Assembly (NCBI GenBank): GCA_902763655.1
Contig: CACWSW010000001.1
Coordinates: 5,172-69,171, forward strand
DNA length: 64,000 bases
DNA from: an uncultured bacterium
GTDB taxonomy: Bacteria > Verrucomicrobiota > Kiritimatiellia > RFP12 > UBA1067
Reading direction: 5' to 3'
Shown here: positions 3,468-39,049 of the stretch, piece after piece
Layout: every line of letters begins with the position of its first letter
How positions within the stretch are numbered: position 1 is the first letter of the stretch
Program-made: the position numbers and the translations under genes
Notes under the pieces: generated by a model
Seen by the model: the letters and a program-made list of their open reading frames with translations, nothing else
Database searches by the model: none
What the model was told of the DNA's origin: nothing

Positions 3468-3482
3468 TAGAATATTGGCGCC

Positions 3483-15787: not shown

Positions 15788-16843
15788 ATGGGCAACTCAA
15801 TCGAATCGATGCCTTGGGGCAGCTTCGAGGGACGCGATGTGCGCCTGTGGCGCCTCGTGAACGCTAACGGCATGGAGCTTGACTTCACCGACTACGGCGG
15901 TCGCCTGATCAAGGCGATCGTTCCCGACCGCGACGGCAAGCTCGACAACGTGACGCTAGGCTGGAACACCCTGGACGAGTATGTGGTGGAGCACGGCGGC
16001 ACCTACTACGGCGCGCTCGTGGGCCGCTACGGCAACCGCATACGCGACGGCAAGTTCACGCTCGGCGGCAAGGAGTACGTGCTTGAGTGCACTAACGCGC
16101 CGGGCGGCATCCCGTGCGCGCTGCACGGCGGAACGCGCGGCTTCTCCCTGCGTTGCTGGGACGTGGTCGAGGAGATCCATACCGACGACAAGGTCGGCCT
16201 CGTCATGGAAATAACCTCTCCTGACGGCGAGGGCGGATATCCGGGCAACGTGAAGGTGCGCGCCACCCTCACGCTCGACAACGCGAACGTCTGGCGCATC
16301 GGCTGGGAGGCCACCACCGACCAGGCGACGCCGCTCTCCCTCACCGAGCACGCCTACTGGAACCTGAACGGCGCGGCGAGCGGCACGACCATCATGGATC
16401 ACACGATGCAGATCAGCGCCGACCGCTTCACGCCCTACAACGTGGGCATGATCCCGACCGGCGAGCTGCGTTCCGTGGAAGGCACGCCGTTCGACTTCCG
16501 CCAGCCGCACGCGATAGGCGCGAACCACGACGCGGACGACGACTGCCTGAAGTACGGCGCGGGCTACGACATCAACTGGGTGGTGAACGGCTGGGACGGC
16601 ACTACTCTCCGCCACGCCTGCACTCTCGCCTCCGCGGCGACGGGCAGGAAGCTGGAGGTGTGGACCACCGAGCCCGGCATGCAGGTGTACGACGGCTACT
16701 ACCTGCCTGTCCGCAACTCTGGCGTTGCGCTGGAGACGCAGCACTTCCCTGACTCGCCGAACAAGCCGGAGTTCCCGACGACCATCGTGCAGCCGGGCCA
16801 GACGCTGCGCACGGCGACAGAATACCGTTTCTCGGCGAGCTGA
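15788..16843 (+). CDS. galM: aldose 1-epimerase (galactose mutarotase)
   Basis: 351 aa. GWNTLDEY / YYGALVGRYGNRI / HGG motifs of the GalM family. Confidence 0.8.
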   Translation: MGNSIESMPWGSFEGRDVRLWRLVNANGMELDFTDYGGRLIKAIVPDRDGKLDNVTLGWNTLDEYVVEHGGTYYGALVGRYGNRIRDGKFTLGGKEYVLECTNAPGGIPCALHGGTRGFSLRCWDVVEEIHTDDKVGLVMEITSPDGEGGYPGNVKVRATLTLDNANVWRIGWEATTDQATPLSLTEHAYWNLNGAASGTTIMDHTMQISADRFTPYNVGMIPTGELRSVEGTPFDFRQPHAIGANHDADDDCLKYGAGYDINWVVNGWDGTTLRHACTLASAATGRKLEVWTTEPGMQVYDGYYLPVRNSGVALETQHFPDSPNKPEFPTTIVQPGQTLRTATEYRFSAS

Positions 16844-16904: not shown

Positions 16905-16981
16905 TGCGACTGTAGCTCAATTGGATAGAGCGTTGGCCTCCGAAGCCGAAGGTTGCTGGTTCGATCCCAGTCAGTCGCACC
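16905..16981 (+). tRNA. tRNA-Arg (anticodon CCG)
   Basis: Manual cloverleaf: acceptor GCGACTG/CAGTCGC, D-stem GCTC/GAGC, anticodon stem TTGGC/GCCGA with loop CTCCGAA, T-arm GCTGG-TTCGATC-CCAGT, discriminator A plus CCA. Confidence 0.8.
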
Positions 16982-16983
16982 AA
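16957..16983. repeat. attL core: 27-bp direct repeat GGTTCGATCCCAGTCAGTCGCACCAAT (3' end of tRNA-Arg)
   Basis: Exact 27/27 match with 63486-63512. Flanking bases differ on both sides. Confidence 0.7.
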
Positions 16984-16997
16984 TAGACAAAGCAAAA

Positions 16998-17024
16998 AAG
17001 CACTGCAAAACCAGTGCTTTTTTT
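16998..17024 (+). terminator. rho-independent terminator after tRNA-Arg
   Basis: Stem AGCACTG / CAGTGCT with loop CAAAAC, followed by TTTTTTTG. Confidence 0.5.
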
Positions 17025-17043
17025 GTTTCGTTCGGCTATTGAG

Positions 17044-17110
17044 TTATGATACAGAATATGATACAATTCCTGCCAGAGAAAAAGAACGCAATAAGGGAAA
17101 TGAGCGAAAA
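17044..17110. repeat. att-proximal repeat block (ATGATACAGAAT ATGATACAAT ... AACGCAATAAGGGAAATGAGCGAAAA); second copy at 63395-63450
   Basis: 24-bp near-identical segment (1 mismatch) plus a 26-bp related segment in the same order. It lies just inside both prophage ends. Candidate integrase arm-type sites. Confidence 0.45.
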
Positions 17111-18243
17111 TGCTTTATAAAAACAACGGCGGAAAGAACTGGTGGGTGATGTTCCGGGACCCTCGTCGGCCAGGAAAATTCATCCGCCAATCGACCGGCA
17201 CGTCCTCCATCGAGCATGCGCGGTCGATCGAGGAGGCCATGCACCTGTCGATCAAGGGCAAGATAGACGACAAGAAGATGAAATCCATCCTCGACGCAAT
17301 CTTCCCTAGGGAGCGCGAGGGATCCGGTCTGCCGATCGGCCAGCTGTGGGCGACGTACGAGCGGTTCATGTCGATGCGCGATCGCAAGCCGGGCGAACGG
17401 CTCGTAAAGCAGCGGAAGAAAAACCTCGAGGACTTCATCGAATGGACGAAGACAGAATTCCCGGTCACGACGGTCGAGGAGGTGACGTTCGACTGCGCGA
17501 TGGCGTACGCCGAATTCCTGAAGAAGAAGTCGAAGCCGAAGGACAAAAAGCACAAGGCGAAGCTGAAGGACAAGAGCCGGAAGGAATACATCGGAAACCT
17601 GTCCACGATCTGGAAGGCTGCCGAGGCGCTGTACGACGTCCGCAACCCGTGGAAGGATCTCCGTCCGGCCGTGCGCGACGGGCAGCGCCACGCCGCTTTC
17701 TCGCGCGCCCAGGAGCGCGCCGTGCTGGAGGCCGCGAAAGCGAGCGCCGTGCCGCATTGGTACGAGGCGTGCCTAATCGCCCGGTGGACCGGACTCCGTA
17801 AACACGATGTCGTGTTCCTGGAATGGAGCAAGGTGGATTTCGAAAAGGGCGTCATTCGCACGAAGCCGATCAAGACGCAAGGCTACAACATCGAGGTCGA
17901 AGTGCCGATGGTGGCCGTTCTGCGCGACGCCCTGAAGGGCCTGTTCGTGAAGGGCAGGAAGTACGTGCTTCCGGAGTTCGCGAAAGTCTATCCGGGCGAT
18001 CCGGAAGACTGCGCCTTCGCCGGGATCCTGAAGGCCGCCGGCGTGACCGATCCGACGATCACGTTTCACAGTTGGCGGCACACCTTCAGGACACGCCTTG
18101 CGGAGGCCGGAGTCAGCAACGACCTCGCAAAGCGCCTCGGCGGATGGACGCAGGACGCGACCGTGCAACGGTACGACCACGCCGACAAAACGGAGGAGAT
18201 TCGCCAGGCGCTCGAGTCTACTTCTTCTGCGGCTCGTCCTTGA
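17110..18243 (+). CDS. int: tyrosine recombinase / phage integrase
   Basis: 377 aa. C-terminal catalytic region HSWRHTFRTRLAEAGV...LGGWT...VQRYDH (R..HxxR..Y). Immediately adjacent to the tRNA attL. Confidence 0.85.
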   Translation: MLYKNNGGKNWWVMFRDPRRPGKFIRQSTGTSSIEHARSIEEAMHLSIKGKIDDKKMKSILDAIFPREREGSGLPIGQLWATYERFMSMRDRKPGERLVKQRKKNLEDFIEWTKTEFPVTTVEEVTFDCAMAYAEFLKKKSKPKDKKHKAKLKDKSRKEYIGNLSTIWKAAEALYDVRNPWKDLRPAVRDGQRHAAFSRAQERAVLEAAKASAVPHWYEACLIARWTGLRKHDVVFLEWSKVDFEKGVIRTKPIKTQGYNIEVEVPMVAVLRDALKGLFVKGRKYVLPEFAKVYPGDPEDCAFAGILKAAGVTDPTITFHSWRHTFRTRLAEAGVSNDLAKRLGGWTQDATVQRYDHADKTEEIRQALESTSSAARP

Positions 18244-21200
18244 CGCGGTAGCGGTATATCTTCCGCAAGTCGCGCACGACCGAATTGCTGTCGCTCATCC
18301 AGCGACCGGCGGCGTCGAGCATGTTGTCCCAGGTGTCGCCGTCTGAGTCGAATATCGCCTCTAGCAGCTTCGCGCCGTCGTTCACTTGGTTCTTCAGCCA
18401 CGATTCCATCGGCAGCATCGAGGAGCCGCCCTTGATCGAGTAGCCCTTGATGGCACGTTCGAGCGTGTACTTGCAGCAGAAACCGGCGACGAAGAGCGAT
18501 CCGTACGGTCCCAGGAGACACGTGATTATCCAGTCATTCAGCTCGTCTTCCGGCGGTTCCTGTCCGAGACACGCTTTGTACAGTTCCCCCATCCAGAAAT
18601 AAGCTGACGAGAGGATGAAGTGATTAAGGAGGATTGCGCGTCCCAGGCTGCCCCAGCGCTTCACCGAGTCCGGACGCGCGATCACCTCGCGGATCGCTCG
18701 CACTTCGTACTGTAGGTACTGCTGTTGCGTGGAGAGGAACTGGAACATGATGCGCCCGAGCTTGTTGCGCCGCTGGATCGAGGTCTGGTTTTCCATGCGG
18801 CCAGACTGCTGCGTCCGTTCGATGATGCTCCACGTCTCGGCCATGGCGTCGTCCTCGGACATGCCGCGATCCAAGCAGTCGCGGTAGATGCCCTGCCCGA
18901 CGACGAGAGCCGGCACGACGTCGCCCAACTTGGTCGTGATCATCGACTTCTGGAGCATACGCTTCAGCCAGCCCGCGTTCTGCTGGCTGAGCGCGTTGCG
19001 GACGGCCTCGGAGGATCCCAGGTTCCAGCGTGTGCGCCTCTGCTCGGAATCCCATATCTTGCCCATCGCGGCCATACCCTCCGGCGTGAATGCGCTCACC
19101 ATGTACTTTGCCGTGTTGACAAGCCCGATCTCGAAGCCGAACGCCGGGATCGAGGTCGTCTGCTTGGCCATGACGCCGATGTTTCCGCCGAGCGCGCACA
19201 GCGCAGTCCAGCCGCGTATCTGGTCGGAGAAATACTGGACGCCCGCCGTGGATCTGTCGTACGCGCCGTGTCCGGCCAGAATGTCCGTGATAAAGCCCTG
19301 CATGAGGTCGTCCACGGACGCGCCGTGGTTCGCCCTGACGGTCTCGCGGAGTTCGGACCGGCCGAAGATGCCGCGCATTTCCAGTCCCAGCTGCGCGTGG
19401 TGCTTCCACTGCGCGGCCTCTTCCATGCGGGACGCCCACATCGAGAAGATGTCGGCCGACGTGTCGAAGTCGCGCTCGTTCCGGACGCGCGGCGTGAGCG
19501 CCTTTGGGAATATCGTCCAGCCGACACCCTGTCCTTTCTCGAGTCCCTGCGTCTCGAGCATCATCTTGACCGGGAAGTAGTTCGGCAGCTCCGCGTACAC
19601 GCCGATCCCGAAGAGCGAATGGCATACGCCGGAGAGGTCGGAGCGGTTGTTCTCGTACCACTGGCCAAGCCATTTCAGCATGTTCATGTCAGCCGGATCG
19701 AGGAGACGCATTATCTCGGCCGCCTGTCCCTCGCGGTGGTGCTTCACGATGTTGTCGTGGTAGCCACCCTCCCAGACGGTCTTCGTCTGGCCGGGATTCT
19801 CCTCGTCCTCGACCTGAACTTTGCGGCCCTCCTGGAGGAGCGAGACGAGCAGCTGGAGCGCGCGGCCCTTGGTGGGCGTGACGCGCTTTCCGCCGACGAC
19901 GCCCATGTACTGCGTGAAGCGCTCGTCCGGAGCCATCATGTCCTTCATGACGGCGTTGAAGCTCTTGCCGTAGATTCCCTCGACCGCGGAGTGAAAGGCG
20001 TCGTTGTGGCGGCGCTTTTCGGCTTCTGACCTGTCGCCGGCCTTCTGCACCTCGCGGGCGATGTAGTCCACGATGTCCTTCACGGCTGCGGCGTCAGCGT
20101 CGGACGCGTGGCGCATGCAGTCCTGCAAAAGCGATATGAAGCCCATGTGGCCGGTGATGAAGCGGTTCAAGGCGTCCGCCTTGCCGCCCTCGCGGATGGT
20201 CGTGCGCTTCGGATCGGCGAACGCGACGGCCAGCAGGTGCGCGGCCTTCTTCGTGCGGATGTCGCGATCTGACATTTCGCGCACGATGTCGTCCGACTCG
20301 CCGCGCGCGAAGTCCTGCCACCATTGGACGGCGGCCTCTATCTCGCCGACGGGCTTGTAGCGGAGCGCGCCGAACTCCCGCAGGACATTCAGCTTGCGGA
20401 TCGTCTCGACGAACTCGCGGCTCTGGTCGCGGTCGCGCCCGGCGTCCGCGAAATCGACGGAGAGCGCGTCAAGCGTCTCTTGGAGCTGTCGGGCTTCTTC
20501 CGCCGCCGCGTCCGGAGTAAGCCACATCGCGTGGCGCATGTAGCGCGCGCGGAGTTCCGCTTCGGCCGAAACCTTGCGCTTGCCCTCTTCCTTGTCGGGC
20601 TTGAACCGTCCCTGCGCACTAAAGCTCTCCCGCAGGAACAGGTCGAGCTTTTCGCACATCTGCTTCTGCGTGTCGCGGATGCGCTGCGCGTTTATGAGCG
20701 CGCCCAGGAACTCCATCTCGGAGATTAGCCCCTGCACGGTCGGCACAGAGTCGAGCTTTGCAATGCCACGCATGGCCGTCTCGCGGCTGCGGGAGTATGT
20801 GAGGTCGCGGCAAAGCTTCGCGTAGACGCTCTGCGCCGTCTTGCGCAGGAACTGCACGGCCACGAGGTCGCGCCACACGTCGGCGTCCTTCGCAAGTCCG
20901 TGTTCCTTGATCCACTGCCGGCGGGCCAGCTCGGCGACAAAGCGCGCAAGGTGGCGCGGGTTCTCCAGGTTGAGCGCGGATTTCTTCACGGCCTCGGCCA
21001 GCGCGTCGCCCTCGGTGCCTTCGCCGGAGGAATCGCCTTCGGCCTCGAGAGCTTCCTCGCCCTCGCCCATGGCGGCCTCGTTCTCGGCGTCGCGCCCGGC
21101 GGCCGCCTTGCGGTTCTTGCGGTTCTGCTCGTCCACGCCTGTCTGTCGTCCGGACGCGGACACGATGTCGTCCACGACGGCCTTCACCTTGGCGTCGATC

Positions 21201-24200
21201 TCGACGGCCGCCTCTTCCGATTCCTCGGCGGACGCCGCACCTTCCTCGTCGGCCGTTCCCTCTCCCTCGCCGGACGTGCCCTGCGGCGCGTCCTTCTCCG
21301 TGAGAGGGTTGTCCGCAAGGTGCATGATCGTCTCGGAGAGGTTGATGCCGTAGGCGTTCTCGATCGCGCCGGAGTCCAGGCCGGTCTGGACGCGCACGGC
21401 GTCCTCCACGATCTGCGCCTGACGCTCCTCGAGCGCCGTGTTCGCCCTCGCCCCGAACGCGCCCAGGCGTGCGCCCTCGCGGGCTTCCTGACGCATCTCG
21501 CGCCCGAACTGCTCGCGCATCGTGTCGGGCAGGTGCTCGAGGACGAGGGAATCGCTCACGCCGCGCCCGATGTCGTCGCGGATGCGCCTTGCGAGCTTCT
21601 GCGCGCCGGACATGACGCGCTGCGACTCTACGCCGATCTTCGTTGTGTCCCATTCGGGATGCAGCCGGCGCATCATCTTCTGCACCGTTGTCACCTTGAC
21701 GGACCTGTCGGACACCTTGTCCGACTTCCCGAGCGCGATCCTGGCGGCGACGGCGGCGGAAAGCAGTTCCTCGTCGCTCATGCCGCGAAGCTGCGGATAG
21801 ACGAGGCCGGAGCGCGGCGCCTCCGTGGAGAAAAGAGTGCCCTGCGTAGCAGGCCAGCTCTTACCCTCTAGAAGCCCAGGCCGCCCCAGTCGTCCCGCAG
21901 CTCCTGTTCCGTCGGACGCTTCGACCAATCTATCCTCTCCACCGGGTGCCCTGCGGACTTCTCCGTAGGCGGGATCGAGGTAGTTGCCGTCTTCCCAGAT
22001 CGGCTTTTGTCCGATGGTGACGTCGTTTGAGAACTGGTCATAGTAGTCAGCCTCCTTCTTCACTAGATTATATGCGCGCGTAGGATTGTCCTGACACGCA
22101 CGTATCACGACAGGGTTGATCCAGCGGCCTGTGGCGAGCGTCCGCAGGAGCGCGCGTCCGAACGCATGGAGTATCGGGACGCGGTTGTTGTGCAGGTACA
22201 CCGTGTACCCTGCGGCATGCCAGTCCGCGATCTTCTTGCGTAGTCCCTCCGCGTCGTCCCCCAGGACGGGCAGCACGACGTTCTCGCCGCGCCGCGGATC
22301 GCCCTCTGCGCGGTTCTGGATGTCGCGGATCATCTGCTTGTTCAACATCGAGCTTTCGGCGTGGACATAGTTCGCGCCGTTACCGTCGTTGAATCCCGGC
22401 AGCTCCTTCTTGCAGGCGTCGCAGTCTAGGACGCGCGAGCGGTACCACACCGAGAGCGCGTTCGCGAACACCGACGACTTGCCCGCAGCCGGCGGCCCGA
22501 CGATGATGTCGATGCGGAAATCCCTCTGCGTCTCGTAGGACGGGTTCTGGAGCGGGATAGGTGGCAAGTCCGGACGGCCCTCGTTCGCCGCGACTATCAA
22601 CGCCTCCTCCTTTGCCGTGCCGTCCTTGCGCGTTTCCAGCGCCTCGTTGTTTTTGCCGGTGATCGAGTCCGCCATCAGCAAGTCGTATATTTTCCGGTGG
22701 ACGGCAAGGCGTTCCGGCGTCGGGTGAGGCTTGCCGTCCTCGCCGGTCACAAAAGCCGTCGGATCGTCCAGTGCCGAATCCTTGCGGAAGTTCGGAAGGA
22801 CGCCGTTCAGTATCTCGTCGGTCGCCTCGGCGGACGTTATGAGCCGATCAAGCAGCGCTGCGGTTTCTTCCGCAGACAAGTCTCCGGCGTTCAACGCCTC
22901 GTCGATTATTGCATTCAGCTCGCGCCCGATCGGACGCTGGAACTGCTTGGCCCTCGCCCATCGAGTTCCCGTTTCCGTGGACGTGCCGTCGGGCTTCAGG
23001 TAGTCCTTCAGCCCAGGCAGCAGGTCGGTGGCACCGCTTACACCGCTGCGCTCGAGTAGTCCTCTCCGAACATTTCGCAGTAGTGCTTCATCGTTGCGAC
23101 GGAGTCTTGCCGCAGCGAGACGATCTCGGAGGGTGTCAGCTCGTAGCTTGCGGAGTTCGCGGGCTTGCGACTGGGTAAGCTCGGCGACGCCGTTTGCGAT
23201 TCCTGCTTCTTTGAGTTCTTCATCGAGGTTGTTCCCGAATTTAGCATACAACGCCTGCATGGCATCGCTGCTGATTGCTATGGTATCAGAAAACTGGCTG
23301 GCCGTCAACGTGGAAATTGCGACAATTTTTCCGCCGCGCGACTGTATGTACTTGCGCAGTTCGTTCAACGTGCCGCCCTGCGTCACGTGGTCGTCCACGA
23401 GAATGTATTCGGCGCCGCGCTGGACGGGGCCAGAGAACGTAGCCACGCGCATCATGCGCTCTACGGCGTTCGCGCCGGTGTGGTTCGCCCGCACCGTCTG
23501 CACGATCCCGTCTGCGAAGCGAAGCCCTGTGATCCTGTGGATCATGAATGCGTACGCGGCGGGAATCTTGTTGCGTCCCGTTGCCTCTTCGGCGTGGACG
23601 TAGGCGACGATCGCGCGCGGATGCTCTGCGGCGAGCGCGCGAAGCTTCTCCCATTTCGGATTTTTCTTCTTCCCGTCCGTCGCCTCTCCCAGGATGTTCC
23701 GGACAAGCTCGAGCGCGGCACCTTCGCTTCCGGCCTTGGCCCGCGTGTGCAGGTCGAGCCACTTCTGCTTGACGCTGGCGAGCGTGGTCTGGATCATCAC
23801 CTTCGGGAAGTTCGCCGGCCACGGCTGGACGGCGCCCTCGACGGGAATGCCCTGCATGATCTCGCGCTTGCGCATCGCGTCGGTTAGTTCCCTCGAGACG
23901 GAGTAGCGCGCTTCTCCAAGATCGACGCGGCTGGTTCGGCTGTCTGTGAGACGGTTGACCTTCTTGTTGTCAACGATGAGGGGATCGTAACTCCTGACGC
24001 TACCCCATTTCCCCGACGCATCCTGCCAGAGAACGTCCGTCACGTTTCCGTTCTCTATTTGGCGGTATATCGCTTGCTGCGCGGCCATGCCGTAGTCGTC
24101 CATCGACTGGTCGCCGACTACGAACAGGAACGCTCCGCCTGTTGCGCCGCGATAGTCGGCCAGGATGTCCGTGATCCTCTTGTCGTCGGCACCGTCGAAC

Positions 24201-27200
24201 GTTTCCGTCGGGACGTTGGCGACCGACGTTACGAAATTCGCCTTGCTGTCAACGGTTATGAACGTCAGCATCTTGCCGCGTTCGGATGCCATGCGCTGGA
24301 GTCGGGCGTAGAACACGGCGATGTTGTCGAGGCCGAACTTCTCCCCGCTCTCTCTCAACGAGTCATGGAACGCGGCATTGTCCTTTGTTGGCTTCTCGAA
24401 CGGATTGCCATGGAAGGACGCCTCCAAATCCGCTGCGCTCATGCGGCGGATGTTGTAGTCGCCCCATTGGTTCATTTCGGCGTATTGGTCATGGTCGATG
24501 ATGACATGCCCGTCGAGAAAGACGCCCTGCCGGTCGAAGTACGTGCGAAGCTCTCCCGTCACGTTTATGTCCGCCCGCGAAGGGAACACATTCCCGGACG
24601 GGTGGTTGTGGAGAAGCCACACGCCGTCCGGCTTCACCTTGGCGATCATGCGCTCGATCTCGGCGTAGGTGTTCTCGCGCGGCGTGTGCACCGTCGTCGC
24701 GGACGCGCCAGGAAGCCGCGCCGTCACGCCGGTCTGCCAGACAACCTCGCCGTTCCTGGTGAAGATGTAGCGGAAAGTCTCGAAGCACGGGTTCCTGTAC
24801 ACCTGCGCGAGCGCGGCCAGGTCTTTTGCCGTCCTTATGGTCTTTCCTATGAGCGTCGTCCGCGCCTCGCCGTGGAAGTCGCGGTTTATCGAGTTTCCCA
24901 GCTCCGTTCCGCCGATCTGGTCGAGGACGCGCTGCGCCTCGGTCTGCGCGGCGCGGAGGTTCGTCTTCTCGGTCTCGGAAAGCCCCTCGGTCGAGACGGA
25001 GTAGCGCACGTCGGGGTTGCCGGAAAATTCGCCGTTGTTGTCGGTGGCTGACTTTACCTGCGCGCCGCCGTCAAGCGGCACGTAGCTGACGCCTCGCAAA
25101 GTATAGCCCTGCTCGTTTTCCGCTGGGTCGCCGCCCTCGTCGTAGACGATGCCGTCGTACTTGTCGCCGAAATTGTCCTTCAGGAACTCTCCGTCCACGA
25201 CCGACGCCTCTCCCCAATCAAGCGCGCCAGATTTGCCGGTCTGGAATTCGTGGTCGGGATAGGCCTTCTTCAGGTCTGCGAGGCATTTCGGATCGCGGAT
25301 GTCGAACGGACGGCGAATGTCCAGATAGTATGCGCGGACATTGCCATATCTCTTGGCATACTCCTGATCGCCAGTGAAGTACGCCTCGGGCATCACGACG
25401 CCCTTGCCGGTTTCCTGTGCCAGAGGATCGAACGCTGCGCCCCGGTAGACGACAAGCGGCTCTCCGTTGGCGTCTACTATTTTTGAACAATCTTCATTGC
25501 CCGGATTGACGCCCGAAAGGAAATATGATATCTTACGGTCCGCATGAGGCTTACGGCCCGTGCTTCCAGCGCCAAGGCTACCGGTCTGACTTCCGGCAAG
25601 ATTGGCGCTTGCATTATATACGAAGACGTCCGACACTTCGGCAGCATGCACCAGATTCTTGTCCGCCACCGTAGAGGTTTTGCTCTCCCGCACGGTGAAG
25701 TGTACGAAAAACTCTCCTTCGGCGCTCTTGAACTTGTTGACGTAATGGTGATAGTTCTCGATGTTAGAGGTGTGGTCCTTGTGTCCTTCGACCGGGTTTT
25801 CCTTTTCGCTCCAGCATCTGATCGCGCTCTCGAAGAGTTTCTTGTATGCAGCGACATACTTGCGCTGATAGACCATCTTTCCCGCCGTGTTCCCCGGGAA
25901 ACGCACCTTGCGCCCGTCACGGCCGTTGGTGACAATGCCGAAGTCCACAAACGCCTCGGCTATTGCGTCCTTGTTCGCCAAGGGCTGTACGCTTGAAATG
26001 TCTACCGTGGCGATTCCATCCAATATGCCTGACGCTTCTATGTCGAACCAGCGTTTCGTTATCTCAGCCTTCTCCCAGTCGCCGAACCACTTCTTAAACG
26101 TGGGCGTCCTGACCATCACCCACTGGCTTTCGTTGAGCCGCGTAGGTTTCCCGTTCGGAGCCTTCATCCAGCCGCGCTTCTTCGTGCCGTCCTCGTTTGT
26201 GTAGCGGGCGACAACTTCGTCATATTCGAGTTGCGCCTGCGGCGACAGGCTGAACCGCGCGCCGCCCTCGCCGGCGGCCCTCTGCGCGGCCATGACCTCG
26301 GCGCGGGTGGCTGGCGTCCCGCCGAACATGTCCTCCGTCTCGGTGTTGACTGCGCGGGCGTTCTTGATGTAGTCCGCCAGGTAGCCGGAAATGAGGTCGA
26401 TGACACGCTTCTTCCCCGCCTCGCTCTCCACGTCCTCGCGGTCGAACGAGCGCAGCTGTTCGGATTTTGCGAACAGGTCGCCCAGGATTCGCGCCTCGTC
26501 CGACGGCGCGCGAAACATGTCGCCCTGCGACATGAACGCCTCCCATGAGAGGCCTCGCTTGCGCGTCCCGTCCTTGGCCGTCTCGCGCCAGTCGTGGCGC
26601 GTCTTGCCTTTCTCGGTTCTGGCCGTCTCGTCCTTGTCGCGCCATTCCGTGAAGAGCTGCAAGGCCTCCGCGAGCGGAGCGCGCAGGTCGTAGGCTGGCT
26701 TCGCGTCCGCGAGCGCCATCAGCTCAGGCGTCATCTTCATCAGCGCGCGCAGCTCGCTCTGCATGTCGAGACGTCCGGCGTTCGACATGATCTTGTTCAA
26801 GAGCGCGTTGTTCCCCTCGCCGCCCAGCAGCACGGCGAGCGCGGCGTTCTGGATGCGCGTCTGCCCCTCTTCGGTGAGCGATCCGTCTTCCGCGACCATG
26901 CCCTGCGCGCCGGTCTCCTGGCGGAACTTCCCGATGGCGTCGCCGCTCTTCGTCTCGTCGATCCGTCCGTCGGCCCGGAACTCCATGCGCGGCAGGAGGT
27001 TGTTGTCGATCAGGATCTTCGCGTCGTTCGACGCCTGTTCGCGGACGTTGAAGCCCCGGTTCTGCGACTCGTTCGCGAGCCGCACGACCTCGTGGACGTC
27101 CGCCTTTCCGTCCGGAGACTCGATGCGCTCGAGCACGAACACCAGAAGCGGCTTCTTCACGTCGTCGCCGATCTCGATGCCGCGCCTGGCTGCATCCTCG

Positions 27201-30200
27201 CGCACGAACTTCTCGAGCTCGCCCGCTGTCCCTTTCGCATACGCGAGCCTGGCACCGTTCACGCGGTGGTTACCGATGATGACGTTTGAGTTATTCAAAA
27301 GCCACACAATCCCGTTATTTGCTATCGGCTGCACGGTCCCGATCTGGAGCGGATCGGGATTCGCGCCGATCTTCTCGACGAGCGCGCGGCTTTCCTCGCT
27401 CTTGTCGTCGCGGTTCTGGTTGCCTCGGTCGTGGTAGTCGGCGTCGGTCGAAGTGATTACGCCCGTCTCAACGTCGCGCACTTCCAGCCGTCCGACGAGC
27501 TTCACTGGGCTGTTCGGAAGTCCGACCTTGTAGTACCGCTGGTTCGGCGTGGCGGCGTCCGCAGGGTGTTCTGCGGTGGCGGCCTGTACGGGCGCCGCTG
27601 TCGGCGCGGGAGTGACGGTAGGAGCAGGACTCGCAGGAGCTGGGGACGGCTCTTCCTCTTTGATTTCGGCCTGTGCCTCGGCCTCCGCCTCCGCGCGGTC
27701 GGCGTCCGTCACTTCAACCGGCATTGAGGATTTCGGCGTGGCCGTGGGTTCCGCCGTCTGCTGCGGCACTTTGCGAAGCTCCACGCCCAGGGTTCCGCTT
27801 CCAAGTTCGCCGCGCAGGATTCTGTCGTAGAGTCCTTTCAGCTGGTACGGCTTGCCGGTCTTGGGATCCGTCACCTCGTCGGAAGGGCCGAACTGACCGA
27901 AGAATTTGATGATCTTCCCAGCCCAGGAGTCGAGCATCTTGTCGAAGCGGGAGGAAACGGCGTGGGAAACGTAGTGGCCGCTCGCGTAGCGTTCCATTTC
28001 GTGCGCCATGCGCTCGTCGAGCTTGCGTTCCCAGTTGTCCGCCGTCACGTCGATGCCGAGCGTCTTTGCGAGCTGCTGCACGTCCGCGTCGGCCAGAGTC
28101 CCCCGGACGAACTGCCAGAGCGAGTGGAAGGTTTCATGGCGCACGGTCGCCTGTGTCGCCGCCGGGCCGTAGCCGATGTCGGCGATGTGACCGTTGGCAA
28201 GGCGTATCACGCTGTCGGCGTTCACGCGCACCTTTTGCCCCTTGGAATCGGTCAGCTCGAACACGCCGCTTCCCATTCTCGCGGCGTTGGACGCGAAAAG
28301 CGCCTCCTGATACCGCTGGGCGTCGGAGAGCATTTCCCACCTTATGCCGTCGCCCAGCTCCTCGTGCCGCTCGTTGAAAGAGTCGCCGAACGCGCTGCCG
28401 ATCTTGGCGTTCTCGTCCGCCTCTGCACGCAGCTCGTCCGAGAAGTCGCCCACGCGGTAGGCGATCGTCTTCTCCGTGCCATCGTCCATCCTGACGCGAC
28501 CGGAGTAGATGCCGTTTTCCGGATCGGACGCGAAGCTGCCATCGACATAGCCGGGAAGGACGGTCTTGATCGTCGCCTCGTCGATGTCCGCGAGCGACAT
28601 GTTCAAGGACGTCCACGCCCGCGCCTGCGGAGAGAACGCCGTCGCCTCGGCCTCGGTCTGGAGGTACTGCGCCATCACTTCGGCCGTCTTCACGTCCACG
28701 CCGGCGGCGTCCGCGATCTCCTGAACGGCGTCGCCGGTCTGCGGATCGCGCCAGGCGCGCCGTGCCGCCGTGATCGCCTCCTCGAAGCGGTGCGGGTTCT
28801 CGGCCTCGTCGCCGTCCTCCTCGCCCTGCCAGTGCTTCTCGACGGCGGCGCGGACGTTCACGGCCTGCTGGATCACGTCAACGAGTCCGGCGTCGTAGTC
28901 GAATGCCTTGGAAGGGTCTTCGCCTCTCTGGTCGAGGCTGAGCATCGTGTCCTCGGCTGTTGCACCGGCGCGACGGTTCGCGTGGCGCGTCATGGCGTTG
29001 TGGATGTGCTGCCGCCGCGTCATGTTGCCGATGGTCGTCACGCCGAATCCGAGCGACGACGGCACCATGTCGGCAGCCGTGTCGATGAAAGTTGCGTAGT
29101 CGTTCGGAAGGGTGGCGGCGAAGCTGTCCCAGAGCGCCTTGGCCTCGTTCGCCAGCGTGGCGTTGCCGTCCTTGCGGAGTTCCTGGCAGAGCTTGTCGAA
29201 CGCCTTGCCGTGTTCGATCGCCATCTGCTGGAGAGGTTCTTCGACAGCGCCCTCGGTGAGCGTGACCTTCACGCCCTCGGTGAAGCCTTTCGAGACGCGG
29301 TTCGCGAGCCACTTCCTGAAGCCCGCCGCGCCGTCCGTCTTGATCGCCTGTGCCATCGCCGCGAACGTGAGCGACTTGATCTGCGCGGGCGCAAGCGACG
29401 ATTCGAGTCCGGGCACGTAGAGCTGTTCGATCTTGGCGTTTATGAGTCCGATCGCCGCAGCGGTCAAGATGGATTCCTCACGGCTGATGCCCGCCGCGTC
29501 CGCATTGGCGATGTACTCCGACGCGAACGCGCTGAACGCCGACGCTTCGCCGGCGGCCCACATTCCGGCGCCCGCCGCGTCCTTCCACTTCGCCGCCTTG
29601 ACGACGTTCGGGATCTCGCGGAGCGCCGCCGTGTACTGATCGACCGCCGCAAGCTGCCGCCTCATGGCGATGGCGGATGCAAACTCGCTGACCTTCTTCG
29701 CGCCCTTGCCCGCCTTGACCGCTCCCTCCACGTCCGCGAGCCAGCGCGTACGGGATGCCTCGGCGGCCGCCTTCGCGAGCGTAAGCCCGCCCTCGGCGAC
29801 TTCCTTCTGCAACTTGGCTCGGACGATCGTGGCCTGTGCGCCCTTGGCCAGCTTGCCGCCCTTGCCGATCATCGAGTAGGGAATGAACCAGTGCATGTTC
29901 TCCGCGAGTCCCTGGAACGCTTCGCCAAAAAGCGAGTCGGCTTCAGGAAGGTTCTGCTTCATCGCCTGTTCGGCGCGCGCGATCGCGTCCCATCCCTTGA
30001 AGAACGCCTTGCGCTCGTCCTCGTCCATCGCGCACTTCGCGTATGTCCACATGGCCGCGTCTCTGGCCATTTCGCCAGTGTCCGTGACGAGTCCGACGAC
30101 AGACTGCTGGAAGCCGTAAAGCCCCAGCTGGAAGCGGTTCATCCAAGTGTCGTCCGTGAAGTCCGTCTGGATTCCGAGGATGCGTCCCTTCTTCTGGTCG

Positions 30201-31060
30201 CCGCGCATCAGCGAGAACGCGGCGTACACGCGGTCGCGCTCGTCCTCCGGCAGTCCTTCGATGTTCGCCGCGTCCGGCGTTCCGTCGCTGAACGACTTGG
30301 CGAGGAGGTAGCCCGCGCGGTCGCTCAGGCCGTGGGCGAACTGGAGGAACGTCGCGAGCGTCTGGCGGCGGGAGAGCTTCGTGTCGTAGTCGGCGATCAC
30401 GTCGGCGCGGTAGGCGGCCTTCTTCTCCTCGTCCATCGAGTCGTAGAACGAGTTGCGGATCGCGTCTTCGCGCCATTCCCTGTCGATCTCCTGTCCCTTG
30501 CGCTGTTCCTCGGTCCATGGAATCGCGAATGCCGACATGTCGCCGGCGGCCATGGCGACAAGCGGATTCGTGCCGCGTTCGCCTTTCATCTTTGACTTGA
30601 CCATGTTCCCGGTCGTCTCGTGCTCGAGCGCGTACTTGAACTTGGCCTCGTCGTCCATCTGCCGCCACTTGGTGTACTCCGGGTCTTCGATCAGCGTGTA
30701 GTCGCCCTTGACGAACTTCCGCAGCATGTCGATGTTCGCGCACGGATCCTTCGACGCGCGCTTGCCGAACGCGACGGATCCGTCCTCGTCCGGAAGGCCA
30801 AACATTCCTTCCGTGACGCTCTGGTAGAGCGCGGACGCGCCCGCGTCGTCGAGCTTGGAGACGTCCGTGGAGAAGAGCATGTCGGCGCTGGCCTTGAATC
30901 TGGCCTTGCGCTCATTCTTCGTACGGTCGTCGAAGTCGTCCGTGCCGCCGGCGAACGACGGCGGGCGGACGAACGTGCCGCCGCCCGTCTTCCGCTCGCC
31001 CATCCCGAGGAAATCAGTCACGTCACTTGGCAGTCTTTCCGTCTTCTCTTCTTCCGCCAT
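18218..31060 (-). CDS. giant multidomain 'polyvalent' virion protein (~4280 aa) with JAB/RadC, PRTase, P-loop kinase, HExxH and ParB-like motifs
   Basis: Single uninterrupted 12.9-kb reading frame. The ATG at 31060 has a GGAG RBS. Recognisable motifs are listed in the findings. Sits at the end of the structural module, like ejection proteins. Confidence 0.75.
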   Translation of the reverse strand: MAEEEKTERLPSDVTDFLGMGERKTGGGTFVRPPSFAGGTDDFDDRTKNERKARFKASADMLFSTDVSKLDDAGASALYQSVTEGMFGLPDEDGSVAFGKRASKDPCANIDMLRKFVKGDYTLIEDPEYTKWRQMDDEAKFKYALEHETTGNMVKSKMKGERGTNPLVAMAAGDMSAFAIPWTEEQRKGQEIDREWREDAIRNSFYDSMDEEKKAAYRADVIADYDTKLSRRQTLATFLQFAHGLSDRAGYLLAKSFSDGTPDAANIEGLPEDERDRVYAAFSLMRGDQKKGRILGIQTDFTDDTWMNRFQLGLYGFQQSVVGLVTDTGEMARDAAMWTYAKCAMDEDERKAFFKGWDAIARAEQAMKQNLPEADSLFGEAFQGLAENMHWFIPYSMIGKGGKLAKGAQATIVRAKLQKEVAEGGLTLAKAAAEASRTRWLADVEGAVKAGKGAKKVSEFASAIAMRRQLAAVDQYTAALREIPNVVKAAKWKDAAGAGMWAAGEASAFSAFASEYIANADAAGISREESILTAAAIGLINAKIEQLYVPGLESSLAPAQIKSLTFAAMAQAIKTDGAAGFRKWLANRVSKGFTEGVKVTLTEGAVEEPLQQMAIEHGKAFDKLCQELRKDGNATLANEAKALWDSFAATLPNDYATFIDTAADMVPSSLGFGVTTIGNMTRRQHIHNAMTRHANRRAGATAEDTMLSLDQRGEDPSKAFDYDAGLVDVIQQAVNVRAAVEKHWQGEEDGDEAENPHRFEEAITAARRAWRDPQTGDAVQEIADAAGVDVKTAEVMAQYLQTEAEATAFSPQARAWTSLNMSLADIDEATIKTVLPGYVDGSFASDPENGIYSGRVRMDDGTEKTIAYRVGDFSDELRAEADENAKIGSAFGDSFNERHEELGDGIRWEMLSDAQRYQEALFASNAARMGSGVFELTDSKGQKVRVNADSVIRLANGHIADIGYGPAATQATVRHETFHSLWQFVRGTLADADVQQLAKTLGIDVTADNWERKLDERMAHEMERYASGHYVSHAVSSRFDKMLDSWAGKIIKFFGQFGPSDEVTDPKTGKPYQLKGLYDRILRGELGSGTLGVELRKVPQQTAEPTATPKSSMPVEVTDADRAEAEAEAQAEIKEEEPSPAPASPAPTVTPAPTAAPVQAATAEHPADAATPNQRYYKVGLPNSPVKLVGRLEVRDVETGVITSTDADYHDRGNQNRDDKSEESRALVEKIGANPDPLQIGTVQPIANNGIVWLLNNSNVIIGNHRVNGARLAYAKGTAGELEKFVREDAARRGIEIGDDVKKPLLVFVLERIESPDGKADVHEVVRLANESQNRGFNVREQASNDAKILIDNNLLPRMEFRADGRIDETKSGDAIGKFRQETGAQGMVAEDGSLTEEGQTRIQNAALAVLLGGEGNNALLNKIMSNAGRLDMQSELRALMKMTPELMALADAKPAYDLRAPLAEALQLFTEWRDKDETARTEKGKTRHDWRETAKDGTRKRGLSWEAFMSQGDMFRAPSDEARILGDLFAKSEQLRSFDREDVESEAGKKRVIDLISGYLADYIKNARAVNTETEDMFGGTPATRAEVMAAQRAAGEGGARFSLSPQAQLEYDEVVARYTNEDGTKKRGWMKAPNGKPTRLNESQWVMVRTPTFKKWFGDWEKAEITKRWFDIEASGILDGIATVDISSVQPLANKDAIAEAFVDFGIVTNGRDGRKVRFPGNTAGKMVYQRKYVAAYKKLFESAIRCWSEKENPVEGHKDHTSNIENYHHYVNKFKSAEGEFFVHFTVRESKTSTVADKNLVHAAEVSDVFVYNASANLAGSQTGSLGAGSTGRKPHADRKISYFLSGVNPGNEDCSKIVDANGEPLVVYRGAAFDPLAQETGKGVVMPEAYFTGDQEYAKRYGNVRAYYLDIRRPFDIRDPKCLADLKKAYPDHEFQTGKSGALDWGEASVVDGEFLKDNFGDKYDGIVYDEGGDPAENEQGYTLRGVSYVPLDGGAQVKSATDNNGEFSGNPDVRYSVSTEGLSETEKTNLRAAQTEAQRVLDQIGGTELGNSINRDFHGEARTTLIGKTIRTAKDLAALAQVYRNPCFETFRYIFTRNGEVVWQTGVTARLPGASATTVHTPRENTYAEIERMIAKVKPDGVWLLHNHPSGNVFPSRADINVTGELRTYFDRQGVFLDGHVIIDHDQYAEMNQWGDYNIRRMSAADLEASFHGNPFEKPTKDNAAFHDSLRESGEKFGLDNIAVFYARLQRMASERGKMLTFITVDSKANFVTSVANVPTETFDGADDKRITDILADYRGATGGAFLFVVGDQSMDDYGMAAQQAIYRQIENGNVTDVLWQDASGKWGSVRSYDPLIVDNKKVNRLTDSRTSRVDLGEARYSVSRELTDAMRKREIMQGIPVEGAVQPWPANFPKVMIQTTLASVKQKWLDLHTRAKAGSEGAALELVRNILGEATDGKKKNPKWEKLRALAAEHPRAIVAYVHAEEATGRNKIPAAYAFMIHRITGLRFADGIVQTVRANHTGANAVERMMRVATFSGPVQRGAEYILVDDHVTQGGTLNELRKYIQSRGGKIVAISTLTASQFSDTIAISSDAMQALYAKFGNNLDEELKEAGIANGVAELTQSQARELRKLRADTLRDRLAAARLRRNDEALLRNVRRGLLERSGVSGATDLLPGLKDYLKPDGTSTETGTRWARAKQFQRPIGRELNAIIDEALNAGDLSAEETAALLDRLITSAEATDEILNGVLPNFRKDSALDDPTAFVTGEDGKPHPTPERLAVHRKIYDLLMADSITGKNNEALETRKDGTAKEEALIVAANEGRPDLPPIPLQNPSYETQRDFRIDIIVGPPAAGKSSVFANALSVWYRSRVLDCDACKKELPGFNDGNGANYVHAESSMLNKQMIRDIQNRAEGDPRRGENVVLPVLGDDAEGLRKKIADWHAAGYTVYLHNNRVPILHAFGRALLRTLATGRWINPVVIRACQDNPTRAYNLVKKEADYYDQFSNDVTIGQKPIWEDGNYLDPAYGEVRRAPGGEDRLVEASDGTGAAGRLGRPGLLEGKSWPATQGTLFSTEAPRSGLVYPQLRGMSDEELLSAAVAARIALGKSDKVSDRSVKVTTVQKMMRRLHPEWDTTKIGVESQRVMSGAQKLARRIRDDIGRGVSDSLVLEHLPDTMREQFGREMRQEAREGARLGAFGARANTALEERQAQIVEDAVRVQTGLDSGAIENAYGINLSETIMHLADNPLTEKDAPQGTSGEGEGTADEEGAASAEESEEAAVEIDAKVKAVVDDIVSASGRQTGVDEQNRKNRKAAAGRDAENEAAMGEGEEALEAEGDSSGEGTEGDALAEAVKKSALNLENPRHLARFVAELARRQWIKEHGLAKDADVWRDLVAVQFLRKTAQSVYAKLCRDLTYSRSRETAMRGIAKLDSVPTVQGLISEMEFLGALINAQRIRDTQKQMCEKLDLFLRESFSAQGRFKPDKEEGKRKVSAEAELRARYMRHAMWLTPDAAAEEARQLQETLDALSVDFADAGRDRDQSREFVETIRKLNVLREFGALRYKPVGEIEAAVQWWQDFARGESDDIVREMSDRDIRTKKAAHLLAVAFADPKRTTIREGGKADALNRFITGHMGFISLLQDCMRHASDADAAAVKDIVDYIAREVQKAGDRSEAEKRRHNDAFHSAVEGIYGKSFNAVMKDMMAPDERFTQYMGVVGGKRVTPTKGRALQLLVSLLQEGRKVQVEDEENPGQTKTVWEGGYHDNIVKHHREGQAAEIMRLLDPADMNMLKWLGQWYENNRSDLSGVCHSLFGIGVYAELPNYFPVKMMLETQGLEKGQGVGWTIFPKALTPRVRNERDFDTSADIFSMWASRMEEAAQWKHHAQLGLEMRGIFGRSELRETVRANHGASVDDLMQGFITDILAGHGAYDRSTAGVQYFSDQIRGWTALCALGGNIGVMAKQTTSIPAFGFEIGLVNTAKYMVSAFTPEGMAAMGKIWDSEQRRTRWNLGSSEAVRNALSQQNAGWLKRMLQKSMITTKLGDVVPALVVGQGIYRDCLDRGMSEDDAMAETWSIIERTQQSGRMENQTSIQRRNKLGRIMFQFLSTQQQYLQYEVRAIREVIARPDSVKRWGSLGRAILLNHFILSSAYFWMGELYKACLGQEPPEDELNDWIITCLLGPYGSLFVAGFCCKYTLERAIKGYSIKGGSSMLPMESWLKNQVNDGAKLLEAIFDSDGDTWDNMLDAAGRWMSDSNSVVRDLRKIYRYRVKDEPQKK

Positions 31061-32910: not shown

Positions 32911-33744
32911 TCACCAGAACGCCCAACCCGATCCGCCGCCGGAGCCTCCCGATCCGCTTGATCCGCCGGAGCTGCCTGTGCTGCCGTATTTCGAGTCCCA
33001 TGACGTGTAGGCGCTTGCGCCGCCGCCAAGCAGTCCGGAGATGAGCGCCAGCCGCCCGGCCTTCTTTGTCGCCCGCGCCGCCTTTCTTCCGTAGGCAAGC
33101 GTCTCCGCCGCAGACTGTCTCGCGTTCTCCAGCGTGAGCGCCGCAGCCTTTCGCGCGTCGGCGGCCGACTCGGCGTCGCTCTGCGCCTTGAACACGAGGT
33201 TGTTTGCGCCCTGGAGCGAGTTGGCTGCGTTCCGTTGCTGGGTGCGCTTCTCCTCCTCGAACGTCCACTGGTTCATCTTGGCGTTATCGAGGATGGTGCT
33301 GATGTCGGCCTGCCCCTCCGTGGCGGAGGACTGGATGATGTAGCCGAACGTGTCGTTCGGGTTCGCGTCCACGGCGAAGCCGTTGCCGGCGAACTGGGCG
33401 TACTGCTGGCCGATCTCCTGCGCGAGGATGCGCGATCGGCGTGCGGCCTCGCGCTCGCCCTTCAGCTGCTCGATGTTCGCCTTCTCCTGCGCGATCTCGC
33501 CCTGCCGCAGCTCCTCGTCGGCATGAAACTTCTCCTTGTTGGCCTCCAGCATGTCCATGAGGGACCGTCGGTCAAGCGCACGCGCCTCGGCGTTCTGCGC
33601 CTCCGCCGCGGCGGCGGCCTCTCGCTGTATCTGCTGCGCCTGTATCTGCGACTGCTGCCGGATGAGCTTCGCCTCCTCGCCCGAGTTGATGTACGACGTT
33701 ATGCCGGAGGCGACGCTGTTGACCGCTGCTGCTATGAATGACAT
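32911..33744 (-). CDS. phage structural protein with Gly/Ser-rich C-terminus
   Basis: 277 aa. Q/A/E-rich coiled-coil N-terminus and a GSSGGSSGSGGSGGGSGW tail. Confidence 0.4.
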   Translation of the reverse strand: MSFIAAAVNSVASGITSYINSGEEAKLIRQQSQIQAQQIQREAAAAAEAQNAEARALDRRSLMDMLEANKEKFHADEELRQGEIAQEKANIEQLKGEREAARRSRILAQEIGQQYAQFAGNGFAVDANPNDTFGYIIQSSATEGQADISTILDNAKMNQWTFEEEKRTQQRNAANSLQGANNLVFKAQSDAESAADARKAAALTLENARQSAAETLAYGRKAARATKKAGRLALISGLLGGGASAYTSWDSKYGSTGSSGGSSGSGGSGGGSGWAFW

Positions 33745-34277
33745 GACCGCTCCTTCCTTTTGCCTAACGCCTCGATTTCGCGCCGAGTCGTTTCAAGCAA
33801 GACCAGAAAATCGTCCTTCACCGGCACGCGGCCGATCTCGCGCATGCCGAGCATGCGCTTCTGCCACGCGACCGACCTCTCGAACGAGGCCGGAGGCCAT
33901 GACCTGAACGTGTCCACCCATGGCGGCATCTGCTCCACCATCCACCGGAATCCTTCGAGCGTTCCCTTGACGAACGAGAACGCATGCCTGTCCACGTTCT
34001 CGCACGACATGTAGGATATTCCGCGCAAGTTGCTCATGTACGAATTGTCGGGCATCGTCAGCACGCCAAGATAGCCGAGGATGTCGCCGTTTTCCGCGCG
34101 CACGGTCCAGCACTGGTCGTGTTCCGCCAGAAGCGTCCGTCTGCCTTCCGCGTCCGCGAGCATCTGTCCTCTGCGCTCGCCCTCCCGGAAGTGGCTTTCC
34201 ACGTAGTCTATGTCTTCCTGGGTGGCCTCGCTCAAAGTCATGCCGCCGGGAAGCCGTTTCAGTATCCTGAAGCTCAT
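33732..34277 (-). CDS. hypothetical phage protein
   Basis: Start at MSFRILKRL, in an ATGA overlap with the upstream tail fibre stop. Confidence 0.35.
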   Translation of the reverse strand: MSFRILKRLPGGMTLSEATQEDIDYVESHFREGERRGQMLADAEGRRTLLAEHDQCWTVRAENGDILGYLGVLTMPDNSYMSNLRGISYMSCENVDRHAFSFVKGTLEGFRWMVEQMPPWVDTFRSWPPASFERSVAWQKRMLGMREIGRVPVKDDFLVLLETTRREIEALGKRKERSCHS

Positions 34278-39037: not shown

Positions 39038-39049
39038 GGTCCTCTCCCG

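Follow-up and report, generated by a model that had tools for sequence, protein, structure and literature searches.

A putative ComFC-like type-I phosphoribosyltransferase module in a giant polyvalent protein of a Kiritimatiellia prophage

The stretch of DNA analysed here (64,000 nucleotides, hereafter the window) comes from an uncultured bacterium of the Kiritimatiellia (GenBank assembly GCA_902763655.1, contig CACWSW010000001.1, positions 5,172 to 69,171). A prophage in the window carries a minus-strand gene (18218-31060, stop codon 18218-18220) for a giant polyvalent protein of 4,280 amino acids (aa). Embedded in this protein is a complete type-I phosphoribosyltransferase (PRTase) module (minus strand, 23069-23827), which spans aa 2412-2664 by the envelope of its family hidden Markov model (HMM) and is recovered by phrog_22413, AlphaFold2 and Foldseek alike. 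Sequence comparison places it in a mobile-element clade of ComFC-like type-I PRTases, which comprises polyvalent PRTases, the N-terminal domain of the plasmid protein KfrC and phrog_22413. On balance, the module probably acts as an autonomous effector dependent on phosphoribosyl pyrophosphate (PRPP), which would be delivered with the DNA and would transfer phosphoribosyl groups or consume PRPP, thereby perturbing the host or counteracting a function of the host or of a rival element.

Motif, family and fold of the phosphoribosyltransferase module

Translation of the reverse strand at positions 23363-23407 yields exactly YILVDDHVTQGGTLN, a canonical PRPP-binding loop (aa 2552-2566), and an unrelated peptide is read from the plus strand. 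The loop comprises strand beta3, the acidic pair D2556/D2557 and the T-x-G-G-T turn that binds the 5'-phosphate, and it aligns with the PRPP loops of APRT and of Escherichia coli YhgH/ComF. It lies in the minus-strand open reading frame (ORF) 18218-31162, and residues are numbered here from the ATG at 31060 (MAEEEK...). This ATG is more likely to be the start codon than the upstream TTG at 31162, because P0068, a sister protein with 91% identity, aligns its residue 1 to that methionine. The preliminary description of the window had located the loop correctly inside the giant ORF; its numbering of 2586-2600 fits a count from the TTG and becomes 2552-2566 from the ATG. The pattern it gave, hydrophobic residues followed by DD and T-x-G-G-T, holds as well, except that two residues and not one stand between the acidic pair and the threonine (hhhh-DD-x-x-T-x-G-G-T, here YILV-DD-HV-T-Q-G-G-T, aa 2552-2564, h being hydrophobic).

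The pattern occurs once in the whole protein. The pattern [hydrophobic]4-DD-xx-[TS]-x-G-x-[TS] is expected 6e-4 times per 4,280 aa and its exact form 1e-5 times, as calculated analytically from the amino-acid composition of the giant protein itself. A chance origin of the motif is excluded, since the expectation does not exceed 6e-4 and homology at the family level is significant over some 250 aa around the motif.

Profile searches extend the homology well beyond the loop. The best Pfam match of the region is PF00156, which reaches 16.2 bits when the whole protein is searched and 20.7 bits when the excised segment is (gathering score 26.3). Two relatives exceed that gathering score (P0066 with 29.8 bits and P0070 with 34.9 bits), and PF00156 is a precomputed annotation of a third, P0001, which is 79% identical. 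As a single sequence, the module matches solved APRTs only marginally (E=0.0045). The excised region aa 2384-2673 matches phrog_22413, a family annotated 'unknown function', at E=1.5e-46 over 212 of its 242 profile positions. Homologues of the excised region numbered 15 and then 64, in a collection of 5.8 billion proteins, and the family profile retrieves 3,020 cluster representatives at E<=1e-3, of which 1,256 reach E<=1e-30. The window module covers positions 4-245 of the 253 in its own family HMM, and the family profile, when searched against the sequences of the PDB, finds Thermus APRT at E=9.4e-9.

The limits of the module are sharp. The median BLAST homology block (aa 2413-2653) and the family-HMM envelope agree on a length of about 250 residues. 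When the giant protein was compared with 210 family members, 139-207 subjects were aligned in each 50-aa bin across aa 2401-2650, while coverage dropped to at most 15 subjects at aa 2351-2400 and to 37 and then at most 9 across aa 2651-2750. The flanks of the relatives are mostly unrelated, only 2-15 of about 200 sharing flanking sequence with the giant protein. Among the best 145 new representatives, 87 are at least 1,000 aa and 60 at least 2,000 aa long, and 17 do not exceed 320 aa. The sharply bounded homology, the unrelated flanks and the solo forms show that the module is an independent cassette, which is shuffled between proteins and is found on its own, too, as a protein of about 245 aa.

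A signature of conserved residues was derived from our own alignment of 214 family sequences. In order, the first half of the module consists of a helical N-terminal part with the AKxGD motif, beta1, the A-x-E-x-x-G-x-N-x-I-P loop, a helix and beta2; the second half consists of a long flexible loop (Q2521, T2528, R2535, F2542, G2544), beta3 with the PRPP loop, a helix and beta4, and C-terminal helices (LT..E, R2645, R2647) close the module. The acidic pair D2556 and D2557 is conserved at 99%, as is R2535, which lies within the loop after beta2 of the model, followed by G2562 (98%) and T2564 (97%). Positions conserved in at least 94% of the sequences are K2442, E2492, G2495, N2497, P2500, Q2521, R2535, F2542, G2544, Y2552, D2556, D2557, G2562, T2564, G2576, G2577 and T2629. 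The window protein retains every one of them together with T2528 (89%), R2645 and R2647 (87% each), and departs from the family at only three well-conserved positions (Y2438H, D2445S and E2632Q). Sister prophages carry modules that share 76-82% identity with this one and keep its boundaries. The closest modules elsewhere, in metagenome-assembled genomes of Lentisphaeraceae, Kiritimatiellia and Vampirovibrio, are 47-82% identical (five loci from a single-sequence scan). They point to a host that is probably a PVC bacterium of the Kiritimatiellia/Lentisphaerae type.

The AlphaFold2 model of the module, built from 66 sequences, reached a pLDDT of 90.3 and a pTM of 0.84. Its core runs from beta1 through a loop and a helix to beta2, from there over a long, less confident loop to beta3 and the PRPP loop, and on through another helix to beta4, with flanking helices at both ends; the strands lie at domain residues 101-104, 131-133, 168-176 and 195-204, and the lower-confidence loop at 134-167. 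In the model, this order agrees with that of the type-I PRTase core, in which the pyrophosphate loop, the flexible loop and the PRPP loop follow beta1, beta2 and beta3, respectively. The top match of Foldseek against the PDB is the ComF protein of Helicobacter pylori (7p0h; E=3.4e-6, 162 columns, root-mean-square deviation 3.9 A), and the other 49 matches listed are all of the type-I PRTase fold (PurR, APRT, OPRT, HGPRT, XPRT and ShosT). PRTases also headed the search of a viral structure library. Alignment of the family with E. coli YhgH/ComF by hhalign gave a probability of 90% (E=1.5e-6, 162 columns) and paired the G-x-N of the family with RGFNQ of ComF, and R2535 with the arginine of 'SARLRKRN' in YhgH/ComF; the 162-column alignment needed a low mact setting, and a direct search of YhgH with the family HMM aligned the PRPP loop alone. 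The preliminary description had named a profile search and a structure prediction as the means of checking its PRTase domain, and both bear the domain out, the one by the match of the family profile to APRT, with PF00156 best in Pfam though below its gathering score, the other by the confident model and by structural matches that are all ComF or type-I PRTase-fold proteins.

Relatives of the module in phages, plasmids and effectors

The relative that says most about the module is a plasmid protein. A tblastn search of 72,556 plasmid records found the module in 157 of them, the best matches being the kfrC genes of IncP-1 plasmids and a 'phosphoribosyltransferase' of the Aeromonas plasmid RA3, which is KfrC. 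Both proteins align with positions 2-249 of the 253 in the family HMM (IncP-1, E=1e-102; RA3, E=5e-101), and their identity to the window module is 35-36% by tblastn. The module is thus a full-length homologue of the N-terminal domain of KfrC. Residues 1-249 of KfrC from RA3 have been described as a PRT-type-I domain; overproduction of KfrC retards growth in a host-dependent manner and condenses the nucleoid, the replacement DDT141-143AAA abolishes the growth retardation, and the C-terminal part of the protein binds KfrA, KorB, VirD4 and VirB4 (PMC8124265). KfrC (RA3 of IncU, RK2 of IncP-1) shares with the window module the full-length domain and the DD(T/H) PRPP loop. It differs in being a two-domain plasmid protein of 355-448 aa with a coiled-coil C-terminus, encoded in the stability or central-control region of the plasmid and not within a virion protein. 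As the only member of the clade with experimental data, KfrC argues by analogy that the PRPP loop is functionally used.

PRTase domains of this kind were described by Iyer et al. in 2017, mainly in polyvalent proteins of phages and prophages of Proteobacteria and Verrucomicrobia; the simplest architectures are fusions to MuF, solo forms are known too, and a conserved arginine after the second strand is common to polyvalent PRTases and ComFC (PMC5512222). The same authors called the role of these domains 'somewhat enigmatic' and suggested that they perhaps produce or sense a nucleotide during the entry of DNA (PMC5512222). KfrC is not mentioned in that paper, relative to which the link is new. 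The window module resembles the PRTases of Iyer et al. in its giant multi-effector context (ART-PolyVal, ddrB-ParB, LPD, RadC and Zeta domains), in its DD motif and ComFC-like arginine after strand 2, and in the host range of Proteobacteria and Verrucomicrobia or the wider PVC group. Nothing essential sets it apart from them; the scaffold of the window protein (N-terminal 1,600 and C-terminal 1,200 aa) is unmatched in 50,697 phage records. The preliminary description had called such a domain in a virion protein unusual, which overstates the case, the family being large and already on record. A literature search covering post-2018 polyvalent PRTases, anti-defence, MuF polymorphic toxins and leading regions found no experimental study of the phage module.

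Relatives of the module are fused to LPD1, LPD7, LPD39, Toprim or MuF. In Moraxella phage Mcat8, a 579-aa 'coat protein' encoded directly after the portal gene is a fusion of MuF (29.4 bits, gathering score 29.6) and PRTase (family HMM, E=5e-83). Solo copies lie in the early or moron regions of prophages and in the stability modules of plasmids. One solo member of 247 aa (P0028) was observed in P2-like prophages of Acinetobacter (locus L001, 8001-8744; also L002-L004), where it occupies an early or regulatory region between the Ogr/tail end and a Toprim primase. In one of these genomes, a pair of AAA_15 and DUF4435 genes lies about 1.2 kb away, and in another an HNH_5 gene occupies the same variable spot. 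The AAA_15 and DUF4435 pair presumably represents a PARIS defence system, which it resembles.

In other giant proteins, the commonest neighbour of the PRTase module is a domain, about 200 aa long and without annotation, that contains an HExxH motif of the ILHEVVGHYGLR-type (ILHEVVGHYG), as in P0078. It has 38 BLAST partners, in 24 of which it lies upstream and in 14 downstream of the module, and it has no match in Pfam. As a conserved partner in the window protein it was rejected, because it is not homologous to the HExxH region of the giant protein at aa 975.

Two further families of effectors were compared with the module. The best NCBIfam match is NF041412, the XopC/Rsp1239 type III effectors (E=8e-7 over about 95 residues; 23102-23500, aa ~2513-2604), which spans the flexible loop, the PRPP loop and beta4 and is longer than the matches to canonical PRTases. 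Like the window module, these effectors have a PRTase-like domain in a protein that is injected into another cell. They differ in being plant-pathogen effectors of the type III secretion system, about 830 aa long, and the module, with 27.5 bits against a cut-off of 1000, is no member of their family. The PRTase-like domain of XopC/Rsp1239 may, judging by this similarity, fall in the same mobile-element clade. A study of the XopC2 kinase was set aside as irrelevant to the PRTase-like XopC family.

ShosT (8zvb/8zvc; PMC11961720, PMC12961424) is matched weakly by the module, at E=0.0065-0.007 over 55-65 residues in PADLOC and at E=2.6e-4 in Foldseek. It is likewise a PRTase-fold protein of the conflict between phages and bacteria, a toxin whose toxicity depends on PRPP, binding of which is indispensable (PMC12961424). 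ShosT differs in being a host defence toxin of 430 aa paired with a DprA-like antitoxin, and the structural alignment gives 13% identity. A full-length match of the module to ShosT was not obtained, and no DprA-like gene adjoins the module, which is internal to the giant ORF. ShosT may nevertheless serve as a useful functional analogue, though distantly related.

The giant protein and its prophage

The giant protein consists of an N-terminal scaffold (aa 1 to ~1605), a region of variable effector cassettes (~1606-3004) and a C-terminal scaffold (~3100-4280). All of its domains are encoded on the minus strand. A ddrB-like ParB domain (27140-27436, aa 1209-1307; PF18763, 40.3 bits, gathering score 27.6) lies in the N-terminal scaffold. 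The cassette region holds, besides the PRTase module, the large polyvalent-protein-associated domain LPD3 (25676-25939, aa 1708-1795; PF18798, 27.0 bits, which just reaches the gathering score of 27), an ART-PolyVal ADP-ribosyltransferase domain (25025-25474, aa 1863-2012; PF18760, 49.2 bits, gathering score 31.2), a RadC-like JAB domain with HNHPSG (24470-24661, aa 2134-2197; PF04002, 40 bits, gathering score 22.1, also found as RadC in NCBIfam) and a Zeta-toxin-like P-loop kinase domain with the Walker A motif GPPAAGKSS (22049-22522, aa 2847-3004; PF06414, 27.6 bits, gathering score 22.3). A Pfam search of the whole protein missed Zeta_toxin and left LPD3 below threshold, while excised segments recovered both. 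The 187 aa between RadC and PRTase (aa 2198-2384, 23909-24469) have no Pfam match. With several unrelated effectors, marker domains and a location among the late genes, the protein can be assigned by its domain content to the polyvalent proteins in the sense of Iyer et al. 2017.

Comparison with sister proteins suggests how the cassette region is assembled. P0067 (4,113 aa) and P0068 (3,913 aa) are 73-91% identical to the window protein across the N-terminal 1,605 aa and again from aa ~2345-2366 onward, and carry different central cassettes; P0068 is without the whole LPD3/ART/RadC block, and P0067 is without LPD3/ART and has about 190 other residues ahead of the PRTase. The GC content dips to 0.55 at 25400-25999, in the LPD3/ART region, against 0.63-0.68 in the scaffolds. 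The cassette differences and the GC dip are consistent with recent cassette exchange.

Short motifs of the form R-[YF]-S-[VL]-S mark the joints between the cassettes. Three copies (GARFSLS, VRYSVS and ARYSVS) lie on the minus strand at aa 1602 (26243-26257), 2019 (24992-25006) and 2385 (23894-23908), and all three coincide with breakpoints of the homology to P0067, P0068 and P0069. The last of them, A-R-Y-S-V-S (23894-23908, aa 2385-2389), stands just upstream of the PRTase module, and a DNA repeat of 20/22 nucleotides, which joins 23893-23914 and 24991-25012, brackets the RadC cassette. In 88 giant relatives, a relaxed form of the motif occurs 21 times against 4.9 expected; it stands just upstream of the PRTase module in only 10 of 118 modules. 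Cassettes could be swapped by recombination at this motif, or a protease could cleave the protein there, and the two roles could also be combined.

Two further observations concern the scaffolds. The single HExxH of the protein is HETFH in the N-terminal scaffold (28124-28138, aa 975-979; ...ATVRHETFHSLWQF...), in a region with no Pfam match at E<=0.1. A zincin-like peptidase for processing is expected in polyvalent proteins, and the motif might belong to it. Across the 4,280 aa, strong hydrophobicity is confined to one stretch, IITCLLGPYGSLFVAGFCC near the C-terminus (18470-18526, aa 4178-4196, KD19=1.78), with which an ejection protein might insert into the membrane.

The left end of the prophage is marked by a tyrosine integrase gene (plus strand, 17110-18243; PF00589, phrog_1), which adjoins tRNA-Arg(CCG) (16906-16982); beyond the tRNA lies a host-like aldose-1-epimerase gene (15788-16843). 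The region 16906-18243 is probably the prophage attachment site together with the left boundary. On the minus strand, the order of genes is large terminase (50624-52192), portal (48421-50166), a protease/scaffold-like gene, tail genes, tail-tube genes (34274-40054), two genes for internal virion proteins (32911-34478), a 623-aa ORF and the giant gene. The tail-tube and internal-virion genes, which are in the same orientation as the giant gene and upstream of it, match phrog_418, phrog_308, phrog_376 and phrog_394. From this content and order, the element is best described as a podovirus-like prophage that has integrated at tRNA-Arg and whose giant gene stands where the last ejection protein is expected (gp16-like).

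Proposed function of the module and its alternatives

The preferred reading, an autonomous PRPP-dependent effector, sets out from the motif, fold, family membership, autonomy and genomic context described above, and continues with packaging, ejection, PRPP binding and catalysis as putative steps. Judging by the gene order, the giant protein would be packaged inside the capsid alongside the other internal virion proteins. Polyvalent proteins, T7 gp14-16 and the N4 virion RNA polymerase provide the analogy for the next step, in which it would be ejected into the cell with the DNA. Its delivery is supported by the place of the giant gene after the portal, capsid, tail-tube and internal-virion genes in the same orientation, and by the MuF-PRTase fusion directly after the portal gene of Mcat8. 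Once inside, the module is predicted, from its intact motifs and fold, to bind Mg-PRPP or a 5-phosphoribosyl nucleotide through D2556/D2557 and T-x-GGT. Purifying selection and the DDT-dependent toxicity of KfrC suggest that it would catalyse phosphoribosyl transfer or PRPP consumption. Within the first minutes after infection, catalysis would perturb the nucleotide or nucleoid physiology of the host, or neutralise a function of the host or of a rival element. An enzyme with a specific acceptor site is favoured over a scaffold, because charged and polar residues outside the PRPP loop are strongly conserved in a module that shuffles fast. The role that the preliminary description had suggested, a nucleotide-depleting or signalling-interfering effector, is a plausible idea, for which the DDT-dependent toxicity of KfrC (PMC8124265) and the toxin ShosT (PMC11961720) provide indirect support.

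Several points weigh against this reading. Virion packaging of the giant protein is inferred from synteny alone, the scaffolds (aa 1-1100 and 3101-4280) having no tblastn match in 50,697 phage records, which left them without a link to any experimentally characterised virion protein. PF00156 stays below its gathering threshold here (20.7 against 26.3 bits), and all NCBIfam PRTase equivalogs score far under their cut-offs on the module (13-21 bits against 107-300). Two well-conserved acidic positions are altered, D2445 (82% D in the family) to S and E2632 (89% E) to Q. The toxicity of KfrC was seen on overproduction and was host-dependent (PMC8124265). No enzymatic activity has been reported for any member of the clade or for ComFC, whose authors were undecided between catalysis and regulation (PMC9005727).

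The strongest alternative is that the module is a ComFC-like helper of DNA entry, an accessory that binds a nucleotide or PRPP, and possibly single-stranded DNA, and translocates phage DNA or hands it over at the membrane without turnover. ComF is the closest solved structure, and the G-x-N loop and the arginine after strand 2 are common to the module and ComF/YhgH(GntX). ComFC is membrane-associated, binds single-stranded DNA and depends on its PRPP site to translocate DNA (PMC9005727); it thus acts where DNA enters the cell, as the module would. The module also recurs in proteins that enter with DNA, such as phage polyvalent proteins and the Toprim-primase fusions of conjugative elements, and KfrC binds the coupling protein VirD4. 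Against this stands the make-up of the module itself, which has a helical N-terminal part with the invariant AKxGD and extra C-terminal helices in place of the N-terminal four-cysteine zinc finger, a part essential in ComFC; there is no cysteine in aa 2384-2673. Models of the ComF family score far below their cut-offs on the module (TIGR00201 comF 12.9 bits against 233.55, GntX NF008616 13.1 against 304). The solo copies, which lie in early or moron regions of prophages and in stability modules of plasmids, do not fit such a helper, nor does the DDT-dependent toxicity of KfrC, which is seen without any DNA transfer. The helper of DNA entry is therefore considered rather unlikely, although it merits weighing.

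A more specific variant of an enzymatic role is that the module is a PRTase for acceptors other than nucleobases. It would be a new kind of early-infection enzyme which uses PRPP to phosphoribosylate either a macromolecule (a host protein, or the end of a DNA or RNA molecule) or an immune signal of nucleotide nature or the precursor of one, and so neutralises defence or a rival element as the DNA enters. If true, this would account both for the toxicity of KfrC and for the PRPP site that is essential in ComFC; for the present it is put forward as an unlikely, speculative proposal.

A sensor of the PurR/PyrR type, in which binding of PRPP, a nucleoside monophosphate or (p)ppGpp would report the metabolic state of the host and gate either the neighbouring RadC-JAB and Zeta kinase domains or the way in which the giant protein is processed, is a distinctly doubtful explanation. 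The top Foldseek matches include PurR chains, some of them bound to ppGpp or cPRPP, and the 'production or sensing of a nucleotide' was proposed by Iyer et al. (PMC5512222). A sensor tied to particular partners is nevertheless unlikely, because the neighbours vary (flanks common to 2-15 of about 200 relatives) and solo proteins of about 245 aa occur. Outside the PRPP loop, E, N, Q, R and K residues that hardly vary also look more like a catalytic or acceptor site.

An ordinary salvage enzyme of the APRT, HGPRT or OPRT kind, boosting the nucleotide supply of the phage, is improbable. APRTs are the best sequence matches among solved proteins, and database names of the relatives include 'hypoxanthine-guanine' and 'orotate phosphoribosyltransferase-like'. 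The similarity to salvage and biosynthetic PRTases extends, however, over only about 40 residues around the PRPP loop, while the hood and the N-terminal part are specific to the family. The NCBIfam equivalog scores given above speak against salvage as well, and one copy fixed in a virion protein would be a poor source of bulk nucleotide synthesis. Finally, a chance motif or a decayed, non-functional relic, for which the sub-threshold Pfam score of the window sequence might be cited, is effectively refuted by the low expectation of the motif, the phrog_22413 match, the confident AlphaFold2 model, the Foldseek matches, the family profile against APRT, the retention of all of the most strongly conserved positions, and the identity to, and shared boundaries with, the modules of sister prophages.

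In terms of annotation, the result is routine: the window adds one more giant prophage protein to the polyvalent class and one more domain to the PRTase clade described in 2017, which has thousands of relatives. The clade itself comprises at least 1,256 representative clusters, mostly in proteins of 1,000-6,000 residues that probably enter cells with DNA. The present analysis supplies clean domain boundaries, a confident model, a map of conserved residues and an experimentally tractable homologue. It ties together the phage module, ComFC with its essential PRPP site and KfrC with its DD-dependent toxicity, so that biochemistry on any one of the three would inform all of them.

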